A stretch of 64,000 bases of DNA from Candidatus Nomurabacteria bacterium (lineage in GTDB: Bacteria; Patescibacteriota; Patescibacteriia; HK-STAS-PATE-3): positions 544,001-608,000 of the forward strand of contig CP060223.1 of NCBI GenBank assembly GCA_023898465.1. Reading direction: 5' to 3'. Below are positions 282 to 57,879 of the stretch, one piece after another. Each line of letters starts with the position of its first letter. The stretch's first letter is position 1. A program made the position numbers and the translations under genes. The notes beneath the pieces were generated by a model. That model did no database searches. It had not been told where the DNA came from and saw nothing but the letters and a program-made list of their open reading frames with translations.

Positions 282-680
282 ATGGTCATCGGAAACGTCG
301 GAGCAGCGCTACTGCACCAACGTCATGGTGTCCGAGTCTTTCTCTATGTTTTGCATGCAACGCGAAAGTGCGTGATCGTGCCACTGCAAACCGAGTCAGC
401 CATCCTCACCACGGCCGAAGTTCCAACGGTCATTAGGAGAGTCCTGGAAGTCGAAACCAGCCTCACGAAGGGTGCGGCTAGCTTCAGTCTACTTCTCCGC
501 TCTCGCCGAAACCCTGATCGTCTGGAAACCTGGGATATCGAAAATCCTGAAGGAGATATCACCTTCAAGCCCGGAGCTACAGCAACGGAAGTCACCAACC
601 GTGTGAGAACAGCGATCATGGCACACCAAGATCGGGAACGCGTGTTTCCCGAGCTCGAACAATCTACCACCGCGGCCTAG
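282..680 (+). CDS. Hypothetical 132-aa protein encoded in a GC-rich patch.
   Basis: AAGGAGG sits 6 nt upstream of ATG 282, inside the longer ORF 174..680. Local GC is clearly above the flanks. No family recognised. The opposite-strand ORF 344..670 is also open, a GC effect. Confidence 0.35.
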   Translation: MVIGNVGAALLHQRHGVRVFLYVLHATRKCVIVPLQTESAILTTAEVPTVIRRVLEVETSLTKGAASFSLLLRSRRNPDRLETWDIENPEGDITFKPGATATEVTNRVRTAIMAHQDRERVFPELEQSTTAA

Positions 681-695
681 TGCTGCGGTGGCTTC

Positions 696-2465
696 TTATG
701 TAAATTTGATAACCTGCCCAGGTTGAAGAGACTTACCTGATTGCGTCTGTGGCTGACTATGTTTCTCTTGTGCCTGAACAGACTTTGACTGCTCAGCTTG
801 CTTCGGAGTATTTTTGGCTGGCTGACTCTTTTCCTGAGGTTGCTTCTTCTTAGGCTTCGCTGTGAATTGCACAGGACCTTTACTCAGCGCCTCGTGTAAG
901 CTAATTTCTTTTGGTGGCTCAGGAGCTACTTCACGCAACTGCTCAGGCTCAGGTGCCGTTTGTGTAAAATTCGGTCGATCGTTTCTTCCCTGCTCTCGCT
1001 CATTGCGTGGACGGGAGCTGTTTTGATTACCTTGAGGATTTGGTTGACGATTTCGGTCATTCCCGCCTGATCGTTGTCGAGATCCGCCGCCTTGATTTTG
1101 ACGCGGTCCACTTCCCCCTCGACGATCATTTCCACCCCTATTACCGCCGCTACGATTTCCGCCACCCTGGGAACCCTGTCCGAGGAAGATTTCATCAACT
1201 CCAGTCCATCGGCGGATTTTATCTTCTACAATCTCTCGCTTCTTAGCATAGCGCTCACGTGACACCTCAATCACTTTTTGCCCATTACCGGTTGGACCGC
1301 TCACTGGCTCCAGAGTTGTAGCGGAAAAAGGCTCAGAAGCTACTCCATCAATCATTAAGCGGAGATAAATATCGTACTTGGTCAGGTTTACTAAATCAGT
1401 CTCAGTGAAGGTGGGATCAAACTCTTTAGCCAAAAACTCTGCATCAGCGGCACCAACACGGAAACACACGATCGATCCGACGTTGCCAAAAACAGCCGCG
1501 CGAACTTGCTCATCTAACTGCTCAATATACTGGTGAGCCATGATAAGATTTAAGCGATACTTACGCGCCTCTGACAAAATGTTGGCAAAGCTCTCAGTGG
1601 CAAAGTTTTGAAATTCGTCAACATAGAGGAAAAAATCTTTACGATCTTTTTCCGCAATGTCTACGCGACTCATGGCCGCCAACTGAATCTTGGTAATCAT
1701 CATACCACCCAGCAAAGCTGCATTATCTTCACCAATACGGCCTTTGGAAAGGTTCAGTAAGACAATCTTTTGCTCGTCCATCAATTGCCGCAAATCAAAA
1801 GTACTCTTCGGCTGGCCAATGATATTACGAATCATTGATGAGGAAAGAAATTGACCAATCTTGTTTTGGATAGGTGAAACAGCTTCGGTACGGAATTGGT
1901 TAGCGTATTGGCCGAATTCCTCATGCCAGAAAGCCTTCACAATAGGATCAGTTAGCTTCTCCACCACTTTTGATCGATAGTCGTTGTCGACGAGAATACG
2001 AGGAATACCCAAAAGTGTTGACCCAGGATACTCAATCAAGGAGAGAATACTATTGCGCAAAATGTATTCCAATCGAGGTCCCCATGAGTCGCTCCACATT
2101 TTTTTAAACACCGAAACAAGACCCGAGGCTACTAAGTGGCGGTGGGCAGGGTTTACACTTTCTAAGACGTTGAAGGCTACCGGATAATCTACATCAGCCG
2201 GATTAATATACACCACATCATTAATTCGATGTGAAGGAATGTAATCTAAAATCTTTTCCACAAAGTCACCGTGCGGATCAATCACAGCTAAGCCATGACC
2301 AGCTCGCACATCCTGGATCATCATATTTTCAAGCACCGTCGTCTTACCCATACCGGTCTTACCGATAAAGTACATGTGACGGCGTCGATCATCTATTCTA
2401 ATACCAAAGCGCCGCTGCTGATTGCGGAAATTCGTTTTAGCAAAAAAATTAATATCTTCACTCAT
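696..2465 (-). CDS. VirD4/TraG/TraD-like type IV coupling-protein ATPase (FtsK/HerA superfamily). It has no N-terminal TM segment and carries a long disordered RGG/KQ-rich C-terminal tail.
   Basis: Walker A is YFIGKTGMGKTT and Walker B/DEFQ is LYVDEFQNF. The block ...RKYRLNLIMAHQYIEQLDE...GNVGSIVCFRVG matches the T4CP C-terminal (TraM-recognition) region. The tail (about 190 aa) is GGNRGG/RQ-rich then KQ-rich. Confidence 0.7.
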   Translation of the reverse strand: MSEDINFFAKTNFRNQQRRFGIRIDDRRRHMYFIGKTGMGKTTVLENMMIQDVRAGHGLAVIDPHGDFVEKILDYIPSHRINDVVYINPADVDYPVAFNVLESVNPAHRHLVASGLVSVFKKMWSDSWGPRLEYILRNSILSLIEYPGSTLLGIPRILVDNDYRSKVVEKLTDPIVKAFWHEEFGQYANQFRTEAVSPIQNKIGQFLSSSMIRNIIGQPKSTFDLRQLMDEQKIVLLNLSKGRIGEDNAALLGGMMITKIQLAAMSRVDIAEKDRKDFFLYVDEFQNFATESFANILSEARKYRLNLIMAHQYIEQLDEQVRAAVFGNVGSIVCFRVGAADAEFLAKEFDPTFTETDLVNLTKYDIYLRLMIDGVASEPFSATTLEPVSGPTGNGQKVIEVSRERYAKKREIVEDKIRRWTGVDEIFLGQGSQGGGNRSGGNRGGNDRRGGSGPRQNQGGGSRQRSGGNDRNRQPNPQGNQNSSRPRNEREQGRNDRPNFTQTAPEPEQLREVAPEPPKEISLHEALSKGPVQFTAKPKKKQPQEKSQPAKNTPKQAEQSKSVQAQEKHSQPQTQSGKSLQPGQVIKFT

Positions 2466-2468
2466 GGA

Positions 2469-3887
2469 TTATATTGGGAGATTACTGGGCGGTTGATCCT
2501 TTTCCTCGGCGTCCGAACTGAGCACCTCTTGATCAGGGTCCACCGGCACGGACTGAACTTGCTTTGCTCGACGAATTGGCACCACTTCAACTGGTAAACT
2601 GCTTGGAGGTTCAGCGCGGCGAGCTTCTGTCTTCTGCACTAATGGAGCTTTCACGTTCACTACTGGGAAGTGATAAATGGTGGCAAGCTCTTCAATGTTC
2701 AGCACATAGGGATCAGCACCGGTCGACATGTCACGATTTTGGAAGGCTCGTAAAATTCGCTTCTTCTTAGTGGCAATCCGTTTTTCTTTACCCAAGTATT
2801 TTGCTTTTGGCTTTGTCTTCTTATCGACTTTGAAGCCATTCATGTCCAGGGTATTAAATTGCTTTAAGGCTCCGGTAATACCTGGCACGCGATCCTTGGA
2901 AAAAGAATCGCCTTCGCCTAAGTATACAATACGCATTTTACAATCGAAATAGAGCTTGGCGGTCTTGTACGAAATCGCTTCAATAACTGCTTTATCGTTT
3001 GGCGTTAAGTGACTCATGATAGAAGCCTCTTTTGAATCCGAGGATTCCTCTTTACCAAAAGGACTGACAAGGTCAGCGGTAAAGGTTTCAGTCAAGCCAC
3101 TGGCAACCTGTTTTGGTAGCCAAAGCACATTATCAAGCAAGCCTCCACCACCTCCACTTGATCCATAGGTTGCCTTAGCGAGCTTCTTAATAATTCCCCG
3201 AGCTCCATCCAGCCACGAATCATCATCTGGTGGCACAATCATTGTCTGAATCCAAAGCTGCTCACCTGGTCGTAAGCGGCTCATATATTCAAGCAGTGAT
3301 GCCATCGGATCAAGCAGCTGCTGCGTCATCGTATGCTCAAAAGCCGGATAGGTGCGGATCGGGTAATAATCCTTTTGACGCAACACAATATCCGCTCCCC
3401 AGAGATCGTACTCTTCGTTTGGAAACTGGGCGACAAACTGCTGGGTGTAGTCCTCTACTTCGCTAATTTCCGCGTCTGGATACTGTGCGTAAAAAGCCGA
3501 CTCAACTAAATCACGATATTGAATAGGAATCCGCACGAGATATTGGATAAAGCCGCCGATGCTGATAATTTCAAAGCTGAGCGGTGGCTGAAACTCTCCC
3601 TTAATATTTTTTTCGTACCAGGAGGGTGCTGACTCAACACCATGGATGTGCGCAAAAGCTGACTCGAGCGCCTTCGGTGTCTGCTCAGTTTCACGTGGTA
3701 CATCAATCGCTAAAATGACGTACTCAATAGTAGACGCAAAACGCTCCTGGGCGTAACCAGTCCATAGCTTGAAGCCTCCCCAAAACAACGCAACGATAAT
3801 AATAAGCCAGCCGCCATGTGTAAAGAGAAACCAGGTGATGGCGAAAGGGTTAGAAAATTCGCTGAGGAAGGAAAAATCAATTGTCAT
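2469..3887 (-). CDS. Hypothetical membrane protein with N-terminal TM helices and a soluble domain of about 430 aa. Probable partner of the downstream ATPase.
   Basis: Hydrophobic FAITWFLFTHGGWLIIIVALFWGGF near the N-terminus. There is a 3-nt gap to the ATPase gene, on the same strand. No family recognised. Confidence 0.6.
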   Translation of the reverse strand: MTIDFSFLSEFSNPFAITWFLFTHGGWLIIIVALFWGGFKLWTGYAQERFASTIEYVILAIDVPRETEQTPKALESAFAHIHGVESAPSWYEKNIKGEFQPPLSFEIISIGGFIQYLVRIPIQYRDLVESAFYAQYPDAEISEVEDYTQQFVAQFPNEEYDLWGADIVLRQKDYYPIRTYPAFEHTMTQQLLDPMASLLEYMSRLRPGEQLWIQTMIVPPDDDSWLDGARGIIKKLAKATYGSSGGGGGLLDNVLWLPKQVASGLTETFTADLVSPFGKEESSDSKEASIMSHLTPNDKAVIEAISYKTAKLYFDCKMRIVYLGEGDSFSKDRVPGITGALKQFNTLDMNGFKVDKKTKPKAKYLGKEKRIATKKKRILRAFQNRDMSTGADPYVLNIEELATIYHFPVVNVKAPLVQKTEARRAEPPSSLPVEVVPIRRAKQVQSVPVDPDQEVLSSDAEEKDQPPSNLPI

Positions 3888-3920
3888 TTGCGTGTTTGTT
3901 TGAGCACGGACGGAAAAGGG

Positions 3921-5087
3921 CTAGGCTGTGGGTATTTCGGGTGGTGTTTGCGTTAAGGTATAGTCCCCGTTATCTAATCGAGTAAACATTTGTCGATTGG
4001 TCAGCGCCAAATGAATGGTGTTCTTTTTCACGACACGCTGAGAAAGCACCTCAGCAACCAGTGCTTCTCGGCTCATCGGCTCACCTTTTTTGCGAAGAAT
4101 GTCAGCTAACACTTCAGCTACCACACCTTCTTTGTAGCCCCACTCGCGCAAGGCATAAATTCCACGGCCAACTAACACATATTCCTTATTGAGAATCAGC
4201 TCATTATGCACGGTCGGCGGATATGCTTTACGAGGATCAAAGCCGGCGGTATTAATCCGCTTTGCAATTTCAGTGAAGTGAAGAGGTTGGCCCTCTTTCT
4301 TTAGGATAAGGTAAATCTTATCATTCATACGACGAGGAGAAATGCTTCCCCAGCTCGTCAAACCATATTCGTCAAAAGGATTGCGTCCTAAATCCTTACC
4401 CAGCTGCAAGGCTGAATGCAACATATCATCTGACAACGCATGCTCATGAATTTTTGCAAACTCTGTCTGGCGAAACTCTTGGAGTAAGTCTGGCAACTCA
4501 ACCGGGTGTCCGATCTTGGTAACCACGCTGACTAACTCACGAACAGTCTGTCGCAAGAGATCGAGTCCGGCACCCTTTAGTTTCCAGGCCCGGCGCATTG
4601 TTTCGCTCTCAGGCATCAATTCAACAGTATCTTTTAGTAATTCACTCAAGACAAAAATAACCGCTCGGCGATTCATGTCGCTTGGACCAGAAAAGCTGAG
4701 TAAGTGTTCGAGGAGCGCTTCCTCTTCCATAATGCCGCCCCGAGCAGTCAGCGTGGTAGTCAAAAGCTGCTGCACCTGGTGCATTACCTGATCAAAGACC
4801 TTGGCTCGGCGGATTTTCTTTACCGCAGTTCCCTCAATCTGGCGAATACGCTCACGAGTAACCTGATAAAGCGCACCAATCTCTTCTAGGGTCTGCGTTT
4901 CTTTGCCGCTTAAACCGTGTCGGCGACGTAAAATATCCTCTTCCTTTCCTGTTAGCTCTTTGAGTAACAAAGAAATGGTTTCAGAGGGGTTAAATTGCTC
5001 CATATCAGTTTGCTGCTTGGAGCTGAGGATTTTGTCCAAAATTGAGTTGGACTCGTTTGTATCCATTGACGTATTGCTTACAATCAA
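3921..5087 (-). CDS. DNA-binding protein with a sigma-70 region-4 HTH followed by two HARE-HTH-like winged helices. The start may be the second Met, at 5066.
   Basis: LTGKEEDILRRRHGL..TLEEIGALYQVTRERIRQIEGTAVKKIR is sigma-70 region 4. KIYLILKKEGQPLHFTEIAKRIN..HNELILNKEYVLVGRGIYALREWGY is a HARE-HTH, with a second copy earlier in the protein. A strong sigma-70 promoter lies immediately upstream. Confidence 0.7.
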   Translation of the reverse strand: MIVSNTSMDTNESNSILDKILSSKQQTDMEQFNPSETISLLLKELTGKEEDILRRRHGLSGKETQTLEEIGALYQVTRERIRQIEGTAVKKIRRAKVFDQVMHQVQQLLTTTLTARGGIMEEEALLEHLLSFSGPSDMNRRAVIFVLSELLKDTVELMPESETMRRAWKLKGAGLDLLRQTVRELVSVVTKIGHPVELPDLLQEFRQTEFAKIHEHALSDDMLHSALQLGKDLGRNPFDEYGLTSWGSISPRRMNDKIYLILKKEGQPLHFTEIAKRINTAGFDPRKAYPPTVHNELILNKEYVLVGRGIYALREWGYKEGVVAEVLADILRKKGEPMSREALVAEVLSQRVVKKNTIHLALTNRQMFTRLDNGDYTLTQTPPEIPTA

Positions 5088-5100
5088 GCGTACTAACGAT

Positions 5101-5129
5101 AATATAGCACATTAGCAAAAATATGTCAA
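5101..5129 (-). promoter_or_regulatory. Sigma-70-type promoter for the sigma-r4/HARE-HTH operon: TTGACA-N17-TATATT on the minus strand.
   Basis: Revcomp of 5124-5129 is TTGACA. Revcomp of 5101-5106 is TATATT. Spacer 17 nt. Confidence 0.6.
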
Positions 5130-5177
5130 GCTATTTGACCAAAACAAAAAACCTTTCAATCCGTCCCCTATCTTAGC

Positions 5178-6089
5178 TTAACGAAAGCGTCGCGCTCGCC
5201 AATTATGCCACTCAACCAATAACGTGCTGGCAATGAAAATTGAGGAGTAAGTTCCCACGATAATACCCGCAATCAGCGCTATCACAAACATACGAATTGA
5301 CTCTCCTCCCAGTACCGCCAGAGCAACTAATACAAACAATGTCGTCATCGAGGTATTAATAGAGCGCGACATGGTCTCATTAATACTCCGGTTAGCGATT
5401 TCTTCAAAAGGCTCATTATGATAACGCTGGATACCCTCACGAATACGATCAAAAACAACAATGGTATCGTGCACTGAGAATCCTAGCACCGTAAGTAAAG
5501 CTGTTACAAAAAGTGAATCAACCTCTGTGCCAAATATCTGACCAAAGAGCACAAAGAGACCTACGATAATAGAAATATCATGAATCAATGCAACAATCGC
5601 GCCAACGCCAAATACCCAACTGGGCACCGGTCCGCCACGAGAAATCTTACGGAAGGCCCAAGTGATATACGCGATGATACCTATGAGAACTAAAGCAATG
5701 GCTGAATACGCTTTCTTGCGCAACTCTTGACCAATACTCGGTCCAATCGCAGTAAATGAATCTTCACTCACCTGCTCTTCTTGTAAAGCGCTTAAGGCAT
5801 CTAGGACTGATTGGCGCTCGTCATTGCTTAAGGCGCGTGTTTTTAGGATGAGGCTTTTTTCGTTAGAAGGAACTGCTTGATAAGAACCCAGGTCTAGAGG
5901 ATTCAATGCGTCTTGTATCGTCGAAAGTTCTGGACGAAGTTCTGGGAAGCTTATCTCCAATCGAGAACCGCCAGTGAAATCAATACCAGGCTTCAAGCCC
6001 CAAATCAAAGCACCGACAATAGAGGCCACAACAAGTATCGCGGAAATGATAGTAAAATATTTTCGCTTTTGGATAATCTTTAGCGTCAT
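5178..6089 (-). CDS. secF: Protein translocase subunit SecF.
   Basis: GIDFTGG motif and SecD/F TM architecture. The start ATG at 6089 overlaps the secD stop (ATGA). Upstream Met in the ORF is an extension artefact. Confidence 0.9.
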   Translation of the reverse strand: MTLKIIQKRKYFTIISAILVVASIVGALIWGLKPGIDFTGGSRLEISFPELRPELSTIQDALNPLDLGSYQAVPSNEKSLILKTRALSNDERQSVLDALSALQEEQVSEDSFTAIGPSIGQELRKKAYSAIALVLIGIIAYITWAFRKISRGGPVPSWVFGVGAIVALIHDISIIVGLFVLFGQIFGTEVDSLFVTALLTVLGFSVHDTIVVFDRIREGIQRYHNEPFEEIANRSINETMSRSINTSMTTLFVLVALAVLGGESIRMFVIALIAGIIVGTYSSIFIASTLLVEWHNWRARRFR

Positions 6090-7750
6090 ACTTGTTCCTT
6101 CTTCCGTACTCCATACAGCCAGGCCACACTCACCCATCGTTGAGTGAGACGTAAGAATGTGCGCGTAACTACAATGGCTGAAAACATACTTACTAAAATA
6201 CCAATCGCTAAGGTAATCGCGAATCCTTTAATGATACTTGTACCAAACCAGGCCAAGATAAAAGTGGTAATTAAACTTGAAATGTTTGAATCGCGAATAG
6301 ACAACCAAGCGCGTCGGAAACCCTCTTCAATCGCTTGATTAAGTGGTCGACCTTCACGCAACTCTTCTTTCATGCGTTCAAAAATAAGCACGTTTGCGTC
6401 TACTGCCATTCCGATGGAAAGAATAAATCCAGCAATTCCAGCTAGAGTCAAAGTCACTGGCCAGAGAATAAAGATGGCAAAAACTACGGCGGAGTATACC
6501 CCTAAAGCCAAAACTGAGATAAGGCCAGGCAAGCGATAATAGAGAATCATAAAGAGCGCAACTAAGCCGAGCCCAATTATGCCAGCAACAAAACTAGACT
6601 GCACTGAACGCTCACCAAGGGTTGGTCCTACATTCTGTTGAGAAACAAGCGTAATTGGTACTGGCAGTGCACCAGCATTTAAATTACGAGCTAAGTCTCG
6701 CGCTTCTTGCAAGGTAAAATCACCTGAGATAACCGCTTCTCCACTCGTGATAGCCTGCTGAACTGTTGGTAAGCTTAATGGGAAGCCATCTAAATAAATA
6801 GCCACCACCTTGCCAACATTGCGCTCAGTAATTTCTTTAAAAAGCTGTGTACCCTCGCTATTGAAATTCAAACTAATCTCTGGAGTATTGGTAGTTTGAT
6901 CAAACACGACTGAAGCTCGTTCCAAATCCTTACCCGATAGCCCAGTTGCCACAAAATCGGTTGAGGGTTCAGTTGACTGCAGTATAAAAAGAATATGACT
7001 ACCTTGAACTTCTCGCACATCTTGCCCATCTTGATTCGCTGTACGCTCGTCGGTCTTCTTAATAATATGCAGACCGAATTGCGATTCAACCAGCTCCGGA
7101 TACACCTGCCCGACCGCTAAATCACCGAAGAGAACGTCATCGAATTCTTGCACGAAAGTGCCTTGTTGCGCAAAACCGAGATCGCCCCCATTATCTTTAC
7201 TACCCGGATCTTCGGAATAGAGTTGGGCCAATTGAGCAAAATCAGCGTCAGGTTGAAGCGCTTGTGCTAATACGTCTTGTGCTTTTTTTCGCACTTCTTC
7301 GTTTTGCGCCTCTATGGCTGCTGGATCCTCTGGTGTGGTCTCAATCTGTTCACGAAATTCTAAGGTTGGAGTTTGACCAATCTGCGCGATTGCCTGGTTC
7401 ACGTCAGTGACACCTGGTAATTCAATCGAGACTCGCCATTGATCGCCAGCCTTTTGCGTTTGGACAACTGGCTCGGATACACCAAAGGCATTCACTCGAC
7501 GCTCAATAACATCGCGAACACCTTCTACAGCGTCTTGCGCCTCAGCTGGAGCTACTTGCGATAGATCAGCGTCATAGAGCAATGACACGCCGCCTTGCAA
7601 ATCCAAACCCAGCTGAACAGGTAAATCAATAGTCCAGTCTACTGGCCCTACGTGAATCCGGATTGGTTTTTGATAGTCAATGGTACCAGCTAGCAGGGTG
7701 AGCAATAGAATCCCGGCAAAACTGAGCCAAACTTTCTTCCGTACGGTCAT
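6086..7750 (-). CDS. secD: Protein translocase subunit SecD.
   Basis: LGLDLQGGVSLLY motif, large periplasmic domain, C-terminal RND-like 6-TM bundle. 4-bp overlap with secF. Confidence 0.9.
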   Translation of the reverse strand: MTVRKKVWLSFAGILLLTLLAGTIDYQKPIRIHVGPVDWTIDLPVQLGLDLQGGVSLLYDADLSQVAPAEAQDAVEGVRDVIERRVNAFGVSEPVVQTQKAGDQWRVSIELPGVTDVNQAIAQIGQTPTLEFREQIETTPEDPAAIEAQNEEVRKKAQDVLAQALQPDADFAQLAQLYSEDPGSKDNGGDLGFAQQGTFVQEFDDVLFGDLAVGQVYPELVESQFGLHIIKKTDERTANQDGQDVREVQGSHILFILQSTEPSTDFVATGLSGKDLERASVVFDQTTNTPEISLNFNSEGTQLFKEITERNVGKVVAIYLDGFPLSLPTVQQAITSGEAVISGDFTLQEARDLARNLNAGALPVPITLVSQQNVGPTLGERSVQSSFVAGIIGLGLVALFMILYYRLPGLISVLALGVYSAVVFAIFILWPVTLTLAGIAGFILSIGMAVDANVLIFERMKEELREGRPLNQAIEEGFRRAWLSIRDSNISSLITTFILAWFGTSIIKGFAITLAIGILVSMFSAIVVTRTFLRLTQRWVSVAWLYGVRKKEQV

Positions 7751-7870: not shown

Positions 7871-9292
7871 TTAATCCTGCACTACCACTTTGGTTCCTAT
7901 TGGCGCCCACTCATACACCCACTTTGCATTCGATTCTGAGATATTAATGCAGCCATGGCTCATAGGATGACCAAAGTTATTATGCCAATACGCGGTGTGC
8001 AGATAGTAATGTGGAGTGAAATTAAGATTCCACTTCACGTCCTTAATATCGTAGTTGTCCGGATGCTGCGGGCCGTAGGTCCACTCATAGTCCATGACCG
8101 GCACTTTGCGATAAATCGCGAACTCACCTTTTGGTGAAGGATAGCGCGCTACTCCGCTGGAGATGAGGAAGCTATTTTGGAGGACTCCATCGTCATAGGC
8201 ATATAAGCGCTGCTCAGAAAGATCCACCACAATGCGTTTCCCTACCTGATCCACACTTGCAACGACCAAGCGATTTGGCCCAGTCACAATTTCGTCTTCA
8301 CCATCTGCATCAATATCGCCAGCGGCAATGAAGAGGCCGCCACGGAAATCTCCACTATAGGCAAAGAAGTCGCGCAGGTATTCGCCCTGCGCAGTGAAGG
8401 CACGTACGTGTGGTCCACCGTTTCCATTGGCTGCTACGAGTAATTCATCGCGACCATCAAAATCTAAATCCGCTCCAGCAATATTTACCCCACCACGGAA
8501 CGCTAGCGGAAAGGCGATGAACTCACTAATGATAGGGCGATCTGGTGCTACGTCATATACCTTCACCCAAGCATGGCCAAAGCGATGCAGCGCGAAAAGA
8601 ATTTCGTCATCACCATCACCATTCACATCCGCAGTAGCCACACTTAACCCGCCGCGTTCGTATTTTGCAAATGGCCAAAAGTCCAGACCTTGATATTCAC
8701 CATCAAGTGAAAAAAGTCTAGCTTGGTTTCCGCTATCAAAACCCGAAGCAGTAATAATCATACCAGTGCCGCTACCATTGAGATCGCCACAAGCAACAGT
8801 AACTCCGCCACGAAAAGCGCTGTCGTAGGCCATGAAGCTAGAAAGCTCCTCGCCTTCCATGGTGTAGACCTTCACATTTGGTCCGCCGCCGCGACGTGGA
8901 CCGGTCACGATTTCTGCAATACCGTCATTATTCAAATCACAACTCGCCACGTAAATACCTTTTCGGAACGCATCCATATACGCATAGAAGCTGCTGAGCT
9001 TTACTCCCTCGCTCGTGAAGACTTGCACGTTTGGTCCGCCGCCTGGACCCGCTCCCACAATTATTTCATCTTTACCATCTCCGTTTACATCTCCAGTCGC
9101 TACGCTTGCTCCACCTTGAAAGGCTTCAGTGAAACCGTAAAACTGATTTACCTGACTAAAGTGCGTATCAAAAATTCTTATCTCAGGTGAAAGAGAGAGC
9201 TGCACTGCCTGAGCGCCTGAAACAAAAAACACCCCGAAGAGGAGCGTCGTTATGAGTAAGGTATACTTCTGAGCTAGAAAATACTTTTGCAT
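7871..9292 (-). CDS. Secreted FG-GAP repeat protein fused to a C-terminal L,D-transpeptidase (YkuD) domain.
   Basis: Signal peptide from MQKYFLAQKYTLLITTLLFGVFFVSGAQA. Repeated GDVNGDGKDEIIVGAGPGGGPNVQVF-type FG-GAP units. C-terminal HxxxxxxxSHGCINI catalytic motif of L,D-transpeptidases. Confidence 0.8.
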   Translation of the reverse strand: MQKYFLAQKYTLLITTLLFGVFFVSGAQAVQLSLSPEIRIFDTHFSQVNQFYGFTEAFQGGASVATGDVNGDGKDEIIVGAGPGGGPNVQVFTSEGVKLSSFYAYMDAFRKGIYVASCDLNNDGIAEIVTGPRRGGGPNVKVYTMEGEELSSFMAYDSAFRGGVTVACGDLNGSGTGMIITASGFDSGNQARLFSLDGEYQGLDFWPFAKYERGGLSVATADVNGDGDDEILFALHRFGHAWVKVYDVAPDRPIISEFIAFPLAFRGGVNIAGADLDFDGRDELLVAANGNGGPHVRAFTAQGEYLRDFFAYSGDFRGGLFIAAGDIDADGEDEIVTGPNRLVVASVDQVGKRIVVDLSEQRLYAYDDGVLQNSFLISSGVARYPSPKGEFAIYRKVPVMDYEWTYGPQHPDNYDIKDVKWNLNFTPHYYLHTAYWHNNFGHPMSHGCINISESNAKWVYEWAPIGTKVVVQD

Positions 9293-9300
9293 TTGTTTGT

Positions 9301-9422
9301 CTTTCCAAAAGAAAAGGGAGAACGGGTGAGGAATCAATTTGGACTCGCTAGAAAGCTAGTAAACCCGAAGTGATTCCTCACCCGATAAGACTCTTTTTGT
9401 GTCTCTTTTTGTTTTTGGAAAG
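9301..9422. repeat. Nested imperfect inverted repeat (13-bp perfect core GGGTGAGGAATCA/TGATTCCTCACCC plus outer CTTTCCAAAA/TTTTGGAAAG arms) in the divergent intergenic region.
   Basis: Read directly. Core arms at 9324-9336 and 9371-9383. The outer arm at 9301-9310 is mirrored at 9413-9422. Confidence 0.6.
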
Positions 9423-9473
9423 AGCCGACTGCATACATCATAGCACACTTTTCGCTTCTCGTCAACATATATC

Positions 9474-9501
9474 TTGAGTTCGCTGCTCCTTTTGCTACAA
9501 T
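9474..9501 (+). promoter_or_regulatory. Sigma-70-type promoter TTGAGT-N16-TACAAT upstream of sodN.
   Basis: TTGAGT at 9474-9479 and TACAAT at 9496-9501. ATG at 9534. Confidence 0.5.
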
Positions 9502-9533
9502 AGCAGCACTCAGCATTTACTCTCGACACTTCT

Positions 9534-9986
9534 ATGAAGAAAAAAATTAAGAGCATTTTCTCTAAAGTACTATTTGGCGAGGAGGCTTCGGCCCACTGTG
9601 ATGGACCTTGTGGAGTATACGATGGTGCCTCCGCGGAAATTGCCGCGCGAGCAGCAGTGAGCATGACTAAGAAGCTCCTTGAGCTCACAACGCCCACTCC
9701 GCAATCAAGTCCAGAAGATAAACTCAACTACCACCACACCGTTGCCCGCTATACACTGATCAAAGAGGAGCAAAGTGAAATTGCCAAGCGCGAACTTCTC
9801 ATACTCTGGACTGATTTTTTCAAACCAGAGCATCTCGATGCTTTTCCTGATTTGCATGAGTTCATTTGGAAGCTTGCCAAACAGTGTTCATATGTGAAGC
9901 AGCACGTTGATCTCGAAGCAGCTGAAAAAATGCACGCTGATATCATGAAGCTGGCTGAGATGCATCATCAGGCCTCTCACCACTAA
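9534..9986 (+). CDS. sodN: Nickel superoxide dismutase precursor (NiSOD).
   Basis: Ni-hook motif HCDGPCGVYDGA follows a 20-aa propeptide. The four-helix-bundle length is right. The SodX-like peptidase is immediately downstream. Confidence 0.85.
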   Translation: MKKKIKSIFSKVLFGEEASAHCDGPCGVYDGASAEIAARAAVSMTKKLLELTTPTPQSSPEDKLNYHHTVARYTLIKEEQSEIAKRELLILWTDFFKPEHLDAFPDLHEFIWKLAKQCSYVKQHVDLEAAEKMHADIMKLAEMHHQASHH

Positions 9987-22451: not shown

Positions 22452-23801
22452 CTAATAGGGCTGCACGTCTAGAGGAAGATCTGTCGCAGTCGGGACTGCA
22501 TTACCTGCAACACTCTCATCATCATTCATCGGCACTACCAGGTAATAGGCAAATGAGGTAGCAGTATCAGCGTCGTCAATTGAACCAATAAAACGATAGG
22601 ATGGCTCGTAAAGGCGCTTACCGTCTGTGGTCGGCGTCCAAACCTGCACGTACGCTGGCTCAACTGATTGCACAGCTATATTCTGGGTATGTACTTGAGC
22701 GTTTTCGTTCGGTTGAGCAACTTGATCACGCCCTGGTCCCCATTTATTATCCTGCAGCTCATCCCAGGCCTGTGAAGCGCTCTTAGCAAAAATCTTCTGA
22801 TCTGATTCCTGTAAAAGCACTGGAATAACTGGGCCGGTAACATTTATCACTTTTGCCTCTGCGCCAAATTCAATTGTCACATAACGAATCAATTCACCAC
22901 TCTGATCGATGACTGGTACGCCATTTATTTCTTGGGTGTAATACACGGAGATAAAGGGCGTGTTCTCTGTCGCATTGGCAACATAAGGACCTACTGCGTC
23001 GGCTGGCAAAAGATTTCTCGACTTTAGGTAGTCTTCAGCTAGCTGCTTAGCCTCGTCTGCTGTTGGGACTGCGCTCTGATGCGTTGACAACCAATCTGCG
23101 CTTGAGAGTAAGGAATACCAATAGCGATTATCCTGAGCATAGGCATAAAGCTGATACGCATTTGGATCGCTCAATACAGTGGCGTCTGGCGGAGTTAAGG
23201 TATCTCCACTATTCTCTACGCTAGGAGTAACCACGCCGGCCTCAAAAGAAACGTTATCTTCATCAAAGACGGTAGAGCGAATAGTATCAGCTAAACCGAA
23301 TTGCTGCGCGATGGCAGTAAAATCTTCTTCTGTAACATTTCTAACGTTTTCAGAGTAAGTGCTTTGCTCTGATGTCTCCTGATCAAGAGTATTCCCATTC
23401 CAAGTATATGCATATTGCCAAACACTGAGCTGCGAAGTTTCTAAGCTAGGATTCACTGCATCAGATTCACCTAAAGTTATGCCCTGACTTGAATCGGTGT
23501 CTTGATATTTTGGTGCGCCAAAGAGCATCGCGCCAGTAACCGCTAAAGCGATTAACGCGAGTCCGCCAAAGTATGGCGCCCATCGAGGCCATTGACGAGC
23601 AACCGGCAAAGCAGCTTTGATTGGAGCCGATGGTAAACTAGGTGTTGTTTGTGCCTGTGGTAAAATTTTTGCAGCCGAAACTTGTCGAGATTTGGCTCGA
23701 GGCTTTTTCTGGCTAGGTTTTTTCACGCTGGTTGTTTTTCGAGCTGCTTTTGCTGTTGTCTTCTTCGTTCGTTTTTGTGTTACAGGCATGGAATACTGCA
23801 A
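22452..23801 (-). CDS. Membrane protein with a histone-H1-like basic N-terminal tail, one TM helix and a large extracytoplasmic domain.
   Basis: KRTKKTTAKAARKTTSVKKPSQKKPRAKSRQ tail. TM helix YFGGLALIALAVTGAMLFG. No family recognised. Confidence 0.55.
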   Translation of the reverse strand: MQYSMPVTQKRTKKTTAKAARKTTSVKKPSQKKPRAKSRQVSAAKILPQAQTTPSLPSAPIKAALPVARQWPRWAPYFGGLALIALAVTGAMLFGAPKYQDTDSSQGITLGESDAVNPSLETSQLSVWQYAYTWNGNTLDQETSEQSTYSENVRNVTEEDFTAIAQQFGLADTIRSTVFDEDNVSFEAGVVTPSVENSGDTLTPPDATVLSDPNAYQLYAYAQDNRYWYSLLSSADWLSTHQSAVPTADEAKQLAEDYLKSRNLLPADAVGPYVANATENTPFISVYYTQEINGVPVIDQSGELIRYVTIEFGAEAKVINVTGPVIPVLLQESDQKIFAKSASQAWDELQDNKWGPGRDQVAQPNENAQVHTQNIAVQSVEPAYVQVWTPTTDGKRLYEPSYRFIGSIDDADTATSFAYYLVVPMNDDESVAGNAVPTATDLPLDVQPY

Positions 23802-36805: not shown

Positions 36806-36897
36806 GAGGTGTGTATTTACGCCGTCGTAACTATTTTAGAGACGGCGCTTTATTATACCCAAAAACTCCCCCTTTGGTCAAAACACTATACTTTACG

Positions 36898-55641: not shown

Positions 55642-57879
55642 ATGGCGCAGCTATCACATACACTAGAAAAAGTACTACTTTGCGACCCGGAGCGAAATAC
55701 CTCTTTGGTCCATATTCATGTACCAGAAAGCACCCCTGTCGAATTCCGTACACTGGGGCAGCTTTTCTTTATTGTAGAAATCGATCGGCAGCTCCCAATT
55801 AACCAAGAGCTGGTAGGTGTTGTCGAGGAAGAAATGCAAAAAGCCTACTATCAGACTGCTCAGCTCAGAGTAGAGCCGGCCTTTGAACAAGCTCTACAGC
55901 ACGTGAACGAACAACTCTACCAACTTATTGAGGGTGGCGTTACTGAATGGCTAGAGCACTTCAATATTGTGGTCGGTATAGTGAAGGATGATCTCATCCT
56001 TTTTGCCCATCTCGGCAATATCAGCGCAGTGCTTATACATGGAGGTCGCGTAACTGACATCATTGCGAACGCGGGACGTGAGCGTGAAAAAGTGAATCCT
56101 TTAAAAATCTTTTCAACGGTAGTATCGGGCACAATTACCGATGGCGACCACATCCTCTTCTATACTCCTAGCGTCCTTGACTATCTCTCGCAGGAAAAAT
56201 TAAAGAGAATTGTGCTTGAACGAACACCGGACGAAGCCGTGCATCAGCTTGATGTGCTACTTGATGAGGCTTCACACCACGCCGCTTTTGGGCTCCTGTT
56301 ATTACACTCGACTCGAGAGCGAGAAACCGTACATCTGCAAACCACTCGGACCACTACCCCACGCGCTCCGATGCATACACAGTCCTCAATGGAGCACTTG
56401 ATCGCCCGAGAACGTTCGACTGATCGCTTGCTTGCACCGTCCTTCTGGTTAACGGCACGACAAATCACCAGCGCAATTACGCAAAATATTCGATCAACAT
56501 TTGGACGCATTCGATCAACGCAGAAAACAACTCGTCGACCCTACTTAGGCACGGAACATAGCTCCCCTGCTTCAGAGTATGCTATGCCGCAGCGTGAGAG
56601 CTCCGGCACAAAAGCTGGATTACAATCAATTGCTCGTATATCGACTCGTAGCGGTAAAGCAGTAGGTCGATCATTGCAAAGTACTTTTGCCAAGCGACAA
56701 CAATGGTTTGATTTCTTGAAGGCGGTACCGAGCGGGCTAGGTCGAGTAACGAACCGTTTTGTACGAAACTTTTTAGCATGGAGCTTTACTCGAAAAGCAA
56801 TTTTCTTTGCAATTATCATTGTGCTCTTCTTTTTTGCCCAGAGCATCGTGAGTATTGGTCGGCGCGGAGCAGTAGAAGAAGCTCAACGACAAGAAACTGA
56901 GGCGGTGGCAGCAATTGAAGAAAAGACTTTTCAAGCCGAGGCATCACTTAGCTACGAAGATGAGGCACGAGCCAATACCCTACTCGATGAAGCCGAGGCC
57001 CTGATTGCTGCGCTAGAAAATAAAGACACTGACGCGGTGCGTAGTGCACAGAATGAAATAAATACCTTACGCGAACAAGCGAACCGAGTAGTACGAATCA
57101 GCGAGCCAACAACGCTGGCCGATCTTAGTCAGCAAGACGGCTTTACCTCTACTCGCTTTATCAACGCGCTAGCAGATACCCTTTATCTGCCAGACCAGAA
57201 TGGTTCGAAGATGTGGGCCGTTGATGGTAATGGCAACGTTGTAGGGATTGATACAGGAATAGATGGTCTAGGGGCGCCAACAATGTCGGCCCTCCAGGGC
57301 GGTCAAAGCATTATTGTGTATCACGACAACGGTGCGGTCTATGCAATAAACGCTGCAAATACCATTCAACTTCTCAGCTTTACTCCCCCGTCGGAAAGTA
57401 AAGACTTTGTCGCGATGTCTACGTATCAATCGCGAGTATACATTCTCGACAAACTAAATAATCAAATTTATCGCTCACTCCAGGGTAGTGCTGCTATTGG
57501 GACTGCAAGTGAATGGCTCGATGCTAACTATGATCTTTCTCAAAGCGTCGATCTAGCAGTTGATGGCACAATCTATGTTGCTGATGAATCTGGTGCAGTG
57601 CGAGAATTCTCTCAAGGAACTCAAGACGACTTCACTCTGCAAGACATCACACCGGCCGTGAATCACATTGATCGAATTTGGACTGATGCTGAGGCAAACA
57701 ATCTGTACATCCTTGATCGTAATGAAAAGCGTTTACTAGTCTTCACGAAGAATGGTCGACTCCGACAGCAATACACCTCGGAGGCTTGGGATGATCTGAG
57801 GGCTATGAGTATAGATGAGGCGAATGATATCGCCTATCTCCTCAGCGGTACTAAAATATATACACTCGAACTACAGTAA
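55642..57879 (+). CDS. Large hypothetical membrane protein: N-terminal cytoplasmic domain, S/T/R-rich linker, one TM helix, coiled coil, C-terminal beta-propeller-like repeats.
   Basis: TM helix FFAIIIVLFFFAQSIVSI. Repeated ...YILD.../...YVAD.../...YLLS... blade-like units. No catalytic motif recognised. Confidence 0.55.
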   Translation: MAQLSHTLEKVLLCDPERNTSLVHIHVPESTPVEFRTLGQLFFIVEIDRQLPINQELVGVVEEEMQKAYYQTAQLRVEPAFEQALQHVNEQLYQLIEGGVTEWLEHFNIVVGIVKDDLILFAHLGNISAVLIHGGRVTDIIANAGREREKVNPLKIFSTVVSGTITDGDHILFYTPSVLDYLSQEKLKRIVLERTPDEAVHQLDVLLDEASHHAAFGLLLLHSTRERETVHLQTTRTTTPRAPMHTQSSMEHLIARERSTDRLLAPSFWLTARQITSAITQNIRSTFGRIRSTQKTTRRPYLGTEHSSPASEYAMPQRESSGTKAGLQSIARISTRSGKAVGRSLQSTFAKRQQWFDFLKAVPSGLGRVTNRFVRNFLAWSFTRKAIFFAIIIVLFFFAQSIVSIGRRGAVEEAQRQETEAVAAIEEKTFQAEASLSYEDEARANTLLDEAEALIAALENKDTDAVRSAQNEINTLREQANRVVRISEPTTLADLSQQDGFTSTRFINALADTLYLPDQNGSKMWAVDGNGNVVGIDTGIDGLGAPTMSALQGGQSIIVYHDNGAVYAINAANTIQLLSFTPPSESKDFVAMSTYQSRVYILDKLNNQIYRSLQGSAAIGTASEWLDANYDLSQSVDLAVDGTIYVADESGAVREFSQGTQDDFTLQDITPAVNHIDRIWTDAEANNLYILDRNEKRLLVFTKNGRLRQQYTSEAWDDLRAMSIDEANDIAYLLSGTKIYTLELQ

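Follow-up and report, generated by a model that had tools for sequence, protein, structure and literature searches.

A DUF8128 membrane protein and a VirD4-like ATPase, collinear with single-chain plasmid and phage proteins, follow a sigma region 4/HARE-HTH protein in a Patescibacteria genome

This analysis concerns three adjacent minus-strand genes, here called A, B and C, and the promoter ahead of them in a Candidatus Nomurabacteria bacterium (assembly GCA_023898465.1, contig CP060223.1). They lie near one end of a stretch of 64,000 nucleotides (positions 544,001 to 608,000 of the contig), which we call the window and whose coordinates are used throughout. The host is a metagenome-assembled genome (MAG) of the candidate phyla radiation (CPR), or Patescibacteria. 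Every name given for a homologue of A, B or C is a Patescibacteria name, in agreement with a first-pass annotation of the window, which had supposed a CPR-type host. The same annotation had described three minus-strand genes with gaps of 33 and 3 nt, immediately downstream of secDF. The open reading frames (ORFs) are where it had placed them, at 3921-5087 (A), 2469-3887 (B) and 696-2465 (C), with 33 nt between A and B and 3 nt between B and C. Directly upstream of A lie secD and secF, an arrangement that is conserved in relatives.

3921..5066, minus strand: gene A, 381 aa from the ATG at 5066 (388 aa if the TTG at 5087 is used)
2469..3887, minus strand: gene B, 472 aa, Pfam DUF8128 (PF26449)
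696..2465, minus strand: gene C, 589 aa, VirD4/TrwB-type ATPase without transmembrane (TM) segments
5101..5129, minus strand: sigma-70-type promoter, with -35 TTGACA at 5129-5124, a 17-nt spacer, TG at 5109-5108 and -10 TATATT at 5106-5101

The most likely start of A is the ATG at 5066 and not the TTG at 5087; on this both sets of gene calls (NCBI and Logan) agree with the way homologues align at their N-termini.

Protein C consists of an ATPase core and a long tail.

1206..2465, minus strand: ATPase core of C (residues 1-420)
2340-2363, minus strand: Walker A motif GKTGMGKT (residues 35-42)
1614-1628, minus strand: Walker B motif LYVDE (residues 280-284)
699..1205, minus strand: low-complexity tail of C (residues 421-589, 169 aa), rich in Q, G, P, S, R and N
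885-905, minus strand: ISLHEAL motif in the tail, with the form ISLxEAL in 26 of 31 homologues
699-728, minus strand: terminal LQPGQVIKFT, with the form PGQ-V-F in 21 of 31 homologues

Both Walker motifs are invariant in 32 homologues, identifying C as an intact P-loop ATPase, one that belongs to the VirD4/VirB4 clade. Three Pfam families of coupling proteins match above their cutoffs: TrwB_AAD_bind (48.7 bits; cutoff 20.5), T4SS-DNA_transf (28.0; 20.1) and TraG-D_C (23.5; 22). The NCBIfam TraD and VirD4 equivalog cutoffs were not reached (e.g. 46 vs 366 bits). Whether searched with a single sequence or with a profile, the PDB held only TrwB and DotL as sequence relatives of C, and FtsK and HerA scored far below the type IV coupling proteins (T4CPs). 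A HerA/FtsK housekeeping type, the outcome against which the first-pass annotation had proposed to check its assignment, was rejected on these Pfam and PDB results. Of the VirB4 models, TIGR00929 gave 18 bits against a cutoff of 643 and PF03135 no match. C has no hydrophobic segment (maximum Kyte-Doolittle value 1.29) and thus not the N-terminal TM region that coupling proteins carry in the same chain, so its description as a VirD4/TraG-family ATPase lacking TM helices stands. The AlphaFold2 (AF2) model of residues 1-425 has a predicted local distance difference test (pLDDT) score of 70 and places eight helices at residues ~106-230, between Walker A and Walker B; the C-terminal domains of VirB4 have a comparable insertion. 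DotL and Cag-beta align to the model over 308-323 residues, the model itself being weak at residues 285-378. Profile comparisons with the single sequences of TrsE, TrsK and TraJ were collinear, of low significance and not discriminating.

With canonical T4CPs (TrwB, VirD4, TraD, DotL) C shares above-cutoff profile matches, a nucleotide-binding domain into which, going by the model, an all-alpha domain may be inserted, and a disordered tail at the C-terminus that bears a putative docking motif. The tail of F TraD binds TraM. Canonical T4CPs differ in that their own chain has a TM domain of two helices at its N-terminus and in being linked to a relaxase or a type IV secretion system (T4SS), whereas C is chromosomal, highly conserved and far from virB4 (PMC12102498).

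The tails of C homologues vary, with Arg/Gly-rich and zinc-ribbon forms. One homologue (locus L053, 5242-8292) has a zinc-ribbon-like CxxC...CxxC motif (CDNCGK...YCRDC) in its tail, and several others carry a precomputed match to PF23477. The closest relative of the C core outside the CPR (locus L089, 8905-10092; 41% identity, E 6e-94) is encoded among recombinase and transposase genes on an alphaproteobacterial plasmid, NZ_CP081110 of Sulfitobacter mediterraneus. It is a stand-alone protein of 395 aa with neither an N-terminal domain nor a tail. A search of 72,556 plasmids with C found C-like ATPases on 330, including 120 from Streptomyces, 54 from Bacillus and 33 from Staphylococcus as well as plasmids from haloarchaea and Sulfolobus. 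MOB-suite typed 267 of the 330 as non-mobilizable, among them Bacillaceae plasmids that clearly bear a Tcp-type transfer operon.

Protein B is a membrane protein with a large soluble domain.

3771..3848, minus strand: single TM segment of B (residues 14-39; 1.93 in a 19-residue Kyte-Doolittle window), conserved in 46 of 46 homologues
2640..3728, minus strand: globular alpha/beta domain of B (residues ~54-416)
2475..2612, minus strand: disordered C-terminal tail of B (low pLDDT), with EPPSSLP at 2592-2612 and the terminal PPSNLP at 2475-2492

The length of 472 aa and the N-terminal membrane segment had been noted before; there is one such segment rather than several. Across the 46 homologues the tail before it has on average 0.13 Lys plus Arg and the 20 aa past it have 2.8, a charge distribution that indicates an N-out/C-in topology. 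In the disordered C-terminal tail, [EV]PP..LP is found in 45 of the 46 homologues and P.N[LI]P lies within the last 15 aa in 42. Precomputed PF26449 (DUF8128) matches cover B and nearly all of its homologues, and clustering at 50% identity leaves 3,236 clusters in this large family. Our local Pfam, NCBIfam and PADLOC libraries gave no match for B, the Pfam copy presumably being without the PF26449 model, and literature searches returned nothing on PF26449 or DUF8128. Among IMG/VR viral contigs the B profile had a single match, marginal and 40 residues long.

The AF2 model of B has a pLDDT of 81.5 and a predicted template modelling score of 0.75. Its top 12 Foldseek matches were all chains of TrwK, the VirB4 of R388, including one of 457 residues. 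Because B has no conserved P-loop, the match was assigned to the N-terminal domain of VirB4. The model thus suggests that the ~360-aa cytoplasmic domain of B resembles the fold of the VirB4 N-terminal, non-ATPase domain. The fold of each half, B and C, is like that of VirB4; here the halves are encoded by two genes, no VirB4 match is seen at the sequence level, the sequence of C is closer to coupling proteins, and B bears a TM helix of its own. VirB4 proteins are recognised by having both domains in one chain together with a profile match, and B and C show neither. In R388, VirB4/TrwK is anchored to the membrane by a separate protein, VirB3.

Single-chain relatives of B and C together were found on plasmids and in phages. 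The PHROG profile phrog_5156, with 824 positions, aligns to B at positions 68-358 and to C at 407-804. In hhalign comparisons, gp156 of Bacillus phage G (825 aa) matched B with a probability of 97% and C with 99.9%, in B-then-C order. A protein of 867 aa encoded on a Niallia plasmid (NZ_CP137637) matched B residues 99-416 at its residues 53-298 (probability 96%) and C residues 9-401 at 327-731 (99.9%). A B. subtilis plasmid (NZ_CP154917) encodes a protein of 885 aa in the same operon position, with a tblastn match to C and a Pfam DUF87 match, this comparison covering the C half only. The ATPase parts of the Bacillaceae plasmid fusions are ~30% identical to C. The phage G protein is significantly similar to both halves; it differs in being a phage protein without an N-terminal TM helix, with one internal hydrophobic stretch at 182-207, and it adjoins the VirB4-like gp155. 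Bacillus phage SPO1 gp27.4 (906 aa; locus L084, 3744-7281) has a C-like ATPase half and an N-terminal half that matches B weakly; it adjoins gp27.3, annotated as 'replication initiation by nicking', and lies near a partition protein. No B-C fusion was present among the top 150 of the 3,236 representative B clusters, whose lengths were 366-691 aa. One apparent natural fusion, in L053, proved to be an artefact of two ORFs bridged by a masked run of N.

These ~870-aa Bacillaceae proteins, named 'DUF87 domain-containing', share with B and C the same collinearity and have a long disordered tail. The tails of the two plasmid fusions end in ASLEDALF and ISIDDLLV, of the form (A/I)S(L/I)xDxL and akin to the ISLxEAL of C. 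They differ in being one polypeptide, in lacking any hydrophobic segment, in having an acidic tail where that of C is basic, and in being plasmid-borne next to genes for a relaxase, TcpC, TcpE, VirB4 and a VirB6-like protein, with no A-like gene. The order in Niallia is fusion, Replic_Relax relaxase, TcpC, TcpE, AAA_10 VirB4 and TrbL/VirB6, with the fusion as the first gene and VirB4 as a separate AAA_10 protein of 851 aa. Since the fused form heads a conjugation operon beside a relaxase and VirB4 is encoded separately, it sits in the coupling-protein position, and judged from this context the plasmid fusion is probably a coupling protein. The collinearity of B and C with such fusions suggests in turn that the pair is a split coupling-protein-type motor in which B is more than an anchor. 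What is split or fused is the N-terminal cytoplasmic domain; the TM helix is an extra of the CPR form, as the relatives examined have none at their N-terminus.

The first-pass annotation had proposed that the membrane anchor of C was split off into the upstream gene. In part this holds, as the only TM segment of the pair is in B and the two genes are closely spaced. B is however no detached anchor, being a DUF8128 protein with a ~360-aa domain predicted to be like the N-terminal one of VirB4, with fused relatives that lack a TM helix at the N-terminus. Coupling proteins without TM segments that are paired with a membrane protein of another gene have been recognised as a subfamily, represented by TraJ/TraI of pIP501 (PMC7434980, PMC13037476). 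In pIP501 and pRE25 the TM-less VirD4-like ATPase is likewise encoded right after a separate membrane protein that is regarded as its anchor (PMC7434980, PMC13037476). TraI, at 143 aa, lacks a large cytoplasmic domain and is not similar to B, and the TraJ/TraI genes belong to a conjugation operon that includes a relaxase; C and TraJ can be aligned only distantly. Profile searches with B gave no match to pRE25 TraI or to phage G gp155.

Protein A, which NCBI names 'sigma factor-like HTH DNA-binding protein', has a sigma region 4 followed by a helical linker and two HARE-HTH-like winged helices.

4809..4967, minus strand: sigma-70 region 4 (4.1 and 4.2) of A (residues 41-93 in the 388-aa numbering; Pfam Sigma70_r4, E 2.4e-11)
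4833-4862, minus strand: recognition helix VTRERIRQIE, inside sigma region 4
4137..4328, minus strand: HARE-HTH winged helix 1 of A (Pfam HARE-HTH, 31.5 bits; cutoff 25.9)
3924..4133, minus strand: winged helix 2 of A, HARE-HTH-like and weak (second stretch of the NCBIfam delta model; internal BLASTP to winged helix 1, E 0.004)

More than 5,300 homologues of A were found, and all the named ones are from Patescibacteria. Against the PDB the A profile matched region 4 of RpoD/SigA only (E 1e-16). The sequence T-R-E-R-x-R-Q-x-E is invariant in 29 homologues, and we take VTRERIRQIE to be the same helix as in E. coli sigma-70. A thus resembles sigma-70 in having a complete region 4.1/4.2. Sigma regions 1-3 were not matched in A by Pfam, NCBIfam or the PDB profile search, and all sigma equivalogs were far under their cutoffs; lacking regions 2 and 3, A is therefore not a sigma factor or initiation factor. 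With the RNA polymerase (RNAP) delta subunit, RpoE, it shares a delta-like HARE-HTH domain and differs in having two winged helices and no acidic C-terminal tail and in being tied to B and C. That A might itself be RpoE was rejected, as the NCBIfam delta-subunit model TIGR04567 gave 33.6 bits, under its cutoff of 42, and the acidic tail is missing. The combination of a sigma region 4 with two HARE-HTH domains had been proposed from the start. Region 4 is firm and one HARE-HTH is above cutoff; the second winged helix had only sub-threshold Pfam matches. Literature searches found no published account of a sigma region 4/HARE-HTH protein in the CPR.

The promoter at 5129..5101 scores 11 out of 12 and is TG-extended. 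At a loose threshold of 9/12 this region had 12 sites for 11.3 expected, which is not above chance. At 11/12 or better the 64-kb window has five sites compared with 1.5 +/- 1.2 in shuffled sequences, and only the one ahead of A has both a 17-nt spacer and the TG. The other four sites, each at 11/12, are at 36881 (minus strand), 38454 (plus), 52639 (plus) and 62555 (plus); such sites are about 3-fold over-represented relative to the shuffles. Upstream of A orthologues the best match reached at least 10/12 in 28 of 41 genome loci and in 62 of 71 independent metagenome loci, 36 of the latter having TTGACA with a 17-nt spacer and 54 being TG-extended; the predominant form in the metagenomes is TTGAC[AT]-17 with TG. 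Matches upstream of B were much weaker at loci without A. This recurrence ahead of A orthologues argues that the promoter is more than a chance match, and it bears out the textbook sigma-70 promoter of the first-pass annotation.

To determine how the three genes are linked, we surveyed 80 genome loci found with B and 80 metagenome loci found with A, the latter at 32-52% identity. At the B-seeded loci, C is the next gene in 58 of 80, and on the upstream side there is A in 45 and secDF in 45. Where C is not the next gene, those downstream of B are unrelated (e.g. glycosyltransferases, DUF4012). Among A-seeded loci with room on the contig, B is directly next in 49 of 53, and in two more there is an insertion between them; C comes after B in 34 of 35, and secF is before A in 31 of 47. 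Because B follows A so regularly, A looks dedicated to the module, as had been suggested of a DNA-binding protein at its head. A is lineage-restricted and, where present, almost always heads B-C. The median gap is 8.5 nt between B and C (42 of 58 are at most 40 nt), 107 nt between A and B and 155 nt between secF and A. The three-gene operon is accordingly plausible in the window, where the 33-nt spacer between A and B is predicted to fold into no hairpin or other structure; at the ~107 nt typical of relatives, co-transcription of A with B-C does not generalise. Downstream of C there is no conserved fourth gene; the commonest is an MnmA-like gene ~1.9 kb away at 19 loci. One metagenome locus (L100, 791-3775) departs from the A-B-C order, with a C-type ATPase directly after an A homologue and no room for B. 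In an Uhrbacteria-labelled MAG (L019, 6259-9701), two C-type ATPase ORFs follow B in tandem, in keeping with a published count of about two T4CP homologues per genome in Patescibacteria.

The interpretation to which we give slightly better than an even chance is that B and C together form one VirD4-like ATPase of the coupling type, tethered to the membrane and made of two subunits, and that A is its dedicated DNA-binding partner. B would serve as tether and scaffold for a C hexamer on the cytoplasmic side of the membrane. The disordered basic tail of C, with its ISLxEAL and C-terminal motifs, may recruit a substrate or adaptor, as the tails of coupling proteins do. DNA binding by A would involve both its HARE-HTH domains and its sigma-A-like region 4, for which TTGACA-like hexamers are the predicted target. 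A could either autoregulate the conserved promoter or pass DNA to the motor in the manner of relaxosome accessory proteins. The motor would most likely feed the chromosomal monoderm-type T4SS that most Patescibacteria encode elsewhere.

Several results weigh against this interpretation, and many of them fit instead a housekeeping DNA translocase in the membrane that works independently of a T4SS, perhaps acting as FtsK or the TM-less SftA do in chromosome segregation or in clearing the septum, or else as a pump for DNA uptake or export, with A as a loading or regulatory factor. As the main rival, this is possible though on balance rather unlikely. The window has no T4SS, relaxase, pilin, virB4 or virB6 gene, and C is linked to no relaxase or mating-pair-formation gene in the window or in ±10-kb flanks, unlike a typical coupling protein. 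Only 148 of 5,713 Patescibacteria T4CP homologues are near virB4; such homologues are present in 2,918 genomes, more than the 2,417 with VirB4, and relaxases are almost absent (109) (PMC12102498). In S. epibionticum the T4CP homologue is dispensable while the T4SS is essential, and the authors of that study raise exaptation themselves (PMC12102498). The median identity of the C core to its orthologues across lineages is 66%, above SecD (55%) and SecF (47.5%) and compared with 41% for B and 40% for A; conservation beyond that of SecD is unusual for a coupling protein and suggests a housekeeping role. So do the conserved chromosomal synteny (L,D-transpeptidase, secD, secF, A, B, C) and the uniform base composition across the module, which also led us to reject a defence island or prophage, along with the housekeeping neighbours. 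The Arg/Gly-rich tail of C, the zinc ribbon of some homologues and the placement of the phage relatives among DNA-metabolism genes point the same way. At 18 B-seeded loci with room downstream, C is not next to B. The B profile, moreover, matched neither TrwK, pSK41 TrsD and TrsE, the Niallia Tcp-type VirB4 nor any other PDB sequence, so that B is linked to VirB4 by fold only. The housekeeping translocase has against it that, of the single-chain relatives whose context is informative, the closest belong to conjugation operons and adjoin a relaxase, and that FtsK and HerA score so far below the T4CPs.

The other alternatives have less in their favour. That B and C are a split VirB4 paralogue, an assembly or energising ATPase rather than a substrate coupler, finds support in pSK41 and pRE25, in which a small gene resembling the N-terminal domain (trsD/traD) is just upstream of virB4. 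We consider it improbable, as the sequence profiles of C favour T4CPs over VirB4, its PDB matches are TrwB and DotL, the B profile finds neither TrsD, TrsE nor the Tcp-type VirB4, and plasmids with the fused form encode a complete AAA_10 VirB4 besides. That A, B and C are functionally unrelated neighbours kept by inherited order, with A a general RNAP-associated factor, would suit the joining of two RNAP-related modules in A (sigma region 4 and a delta-like HARE-HTH), the A-B gaps that leave space for a separate promoter and the absence of A upstream of B at 35 of 80 B loci. It is very improbable given that B follows A across loci spanning 32-52% identity, that A and B stay together where adjacency to secDF or C is lost, and that B and C are collinear with fused proteins. 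We give the least credence to a defence module related to MADS mad8 or DndH-type ATPases: PADLOC did match C to mad8 (E 8.6e-16) and weakly to HerA and DndH, yet its matches are limited to the generic ATPase and region 4 parts, none of the adjoining genes codes for a nuclease, methylase or other defence partner, there is no conserved fourth gene, and the module occurs widely, keeps its synteny, seems to be inherited vertically and has a very conserved core. As for a broader hypothesis, doubtful as a whole, the DUF8128 plus TM-less VirD4-like family, split in the CPR and fused in Bacillaceae plasmids and large Bacillus phages, might be a distinct coupling-ATPase lineage with a VirB4-type N-terminal domain, intermediate between VirB4 and VirD4. 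In Patescibacteria it might have become a vertically inherited, relaxase-free membrane DNA motor of housekeeping grade, loaded or controlled by A, which would reuse the -35-reading domain of the primary sigma factor as a DNA adaptor.

Around the module, one further feature lies just past the stop codon of C.

667..691, no strand assigned: GC-rich hairpin, common to the end of C and a convergent small ORF

The hairpin has a 10-bp stem with 8 GC pairs (-18.8 kcal/mol, z -2.85), its U-tract on the minus strand is poor, and it is likely a bidirectional terminator. The convergent ORF (282-680, plus strand) encodes 132 aa by the Logan gene calls, or 168 aa from a GTG, and has no family match. The spacer between secF and A was considered as a terminator and found unconvincing, having merely a weak AU/GU hairpin with the U-run as an arm. 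The SecD encoded at 6086-7750 (minus strand) has Pfam Rotamase and Rotamase_3 (parvulin-type peptidyl-prolyl isomerase) matches in its extracytoplasmic head, between SecD_1st and SecDF_P1_head, and looks like a SecD-foldase fusion. Upstream of secD, the gene at 7871-9337 (minus strand) codes for a protein of 488 aa that combines FG-GAP repeats with a YkuD L,D-transpeptidase domain at the C-terminus, and its position is kept in several related loci. A nickel superoxide dismutase (Sod_Ni) gene adjoins a small ORF with a faint S26 peptidase match, possibly the Sod_Ni maturation protease; the two are at 9534-9986 (plus strand) and 9356-9727 (minus strand). The other large genes in the window are housekeeping ones, for PBP2, UvrD, GlmS, a Mur ligase, ExoVII and a DsbD-like protein. 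Two large ORFs, at 55642-57879 (plus strand, 745 aa) and 22452-23801 (minus strand, 449 aa), had no Pfam match at E <= 1e-4, and the window has no tRNA genes or Rfam matches.

The abundance of orphan VirD4-like genes in Patescibacteria and the existence of a TM-less coupling-protein subfamily are already published. Neither the DUF8128 partner and its predicted VirB4-like fold nor the plasmid and phage fusions or the dedicated sigma region 4/HARE-HTH gene turned up in the searchable literature. The VirD4-like genes of Patescibacteria have been described as near-universal, far from virB4 and left unexplained (PMC12102498). With this work an orphan ATPase gains a set of partners: a putative DUF8128 scaffold and, in many lineages, a sigma region 4/HARE-HTH protein behind a conserved promoter. 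The pair is tied to single-chain proteins in the coupling-protein position of Gram-positive conjugation operons, and Pfam DUF8128 gains a structural and contextual assignment. If B and C do act together as proposed, theirs is a coupling-protein architecture outside the T4CP classification review (PMC7434980) and the literature searched. Patescibacteria are host-dependent and account for much of bacterial diversity, and in the one species tested their T4SS is essential. The function of these ATPases may now be approached by binding, localisation and deletion experiments in genetically tractable CPR strains.

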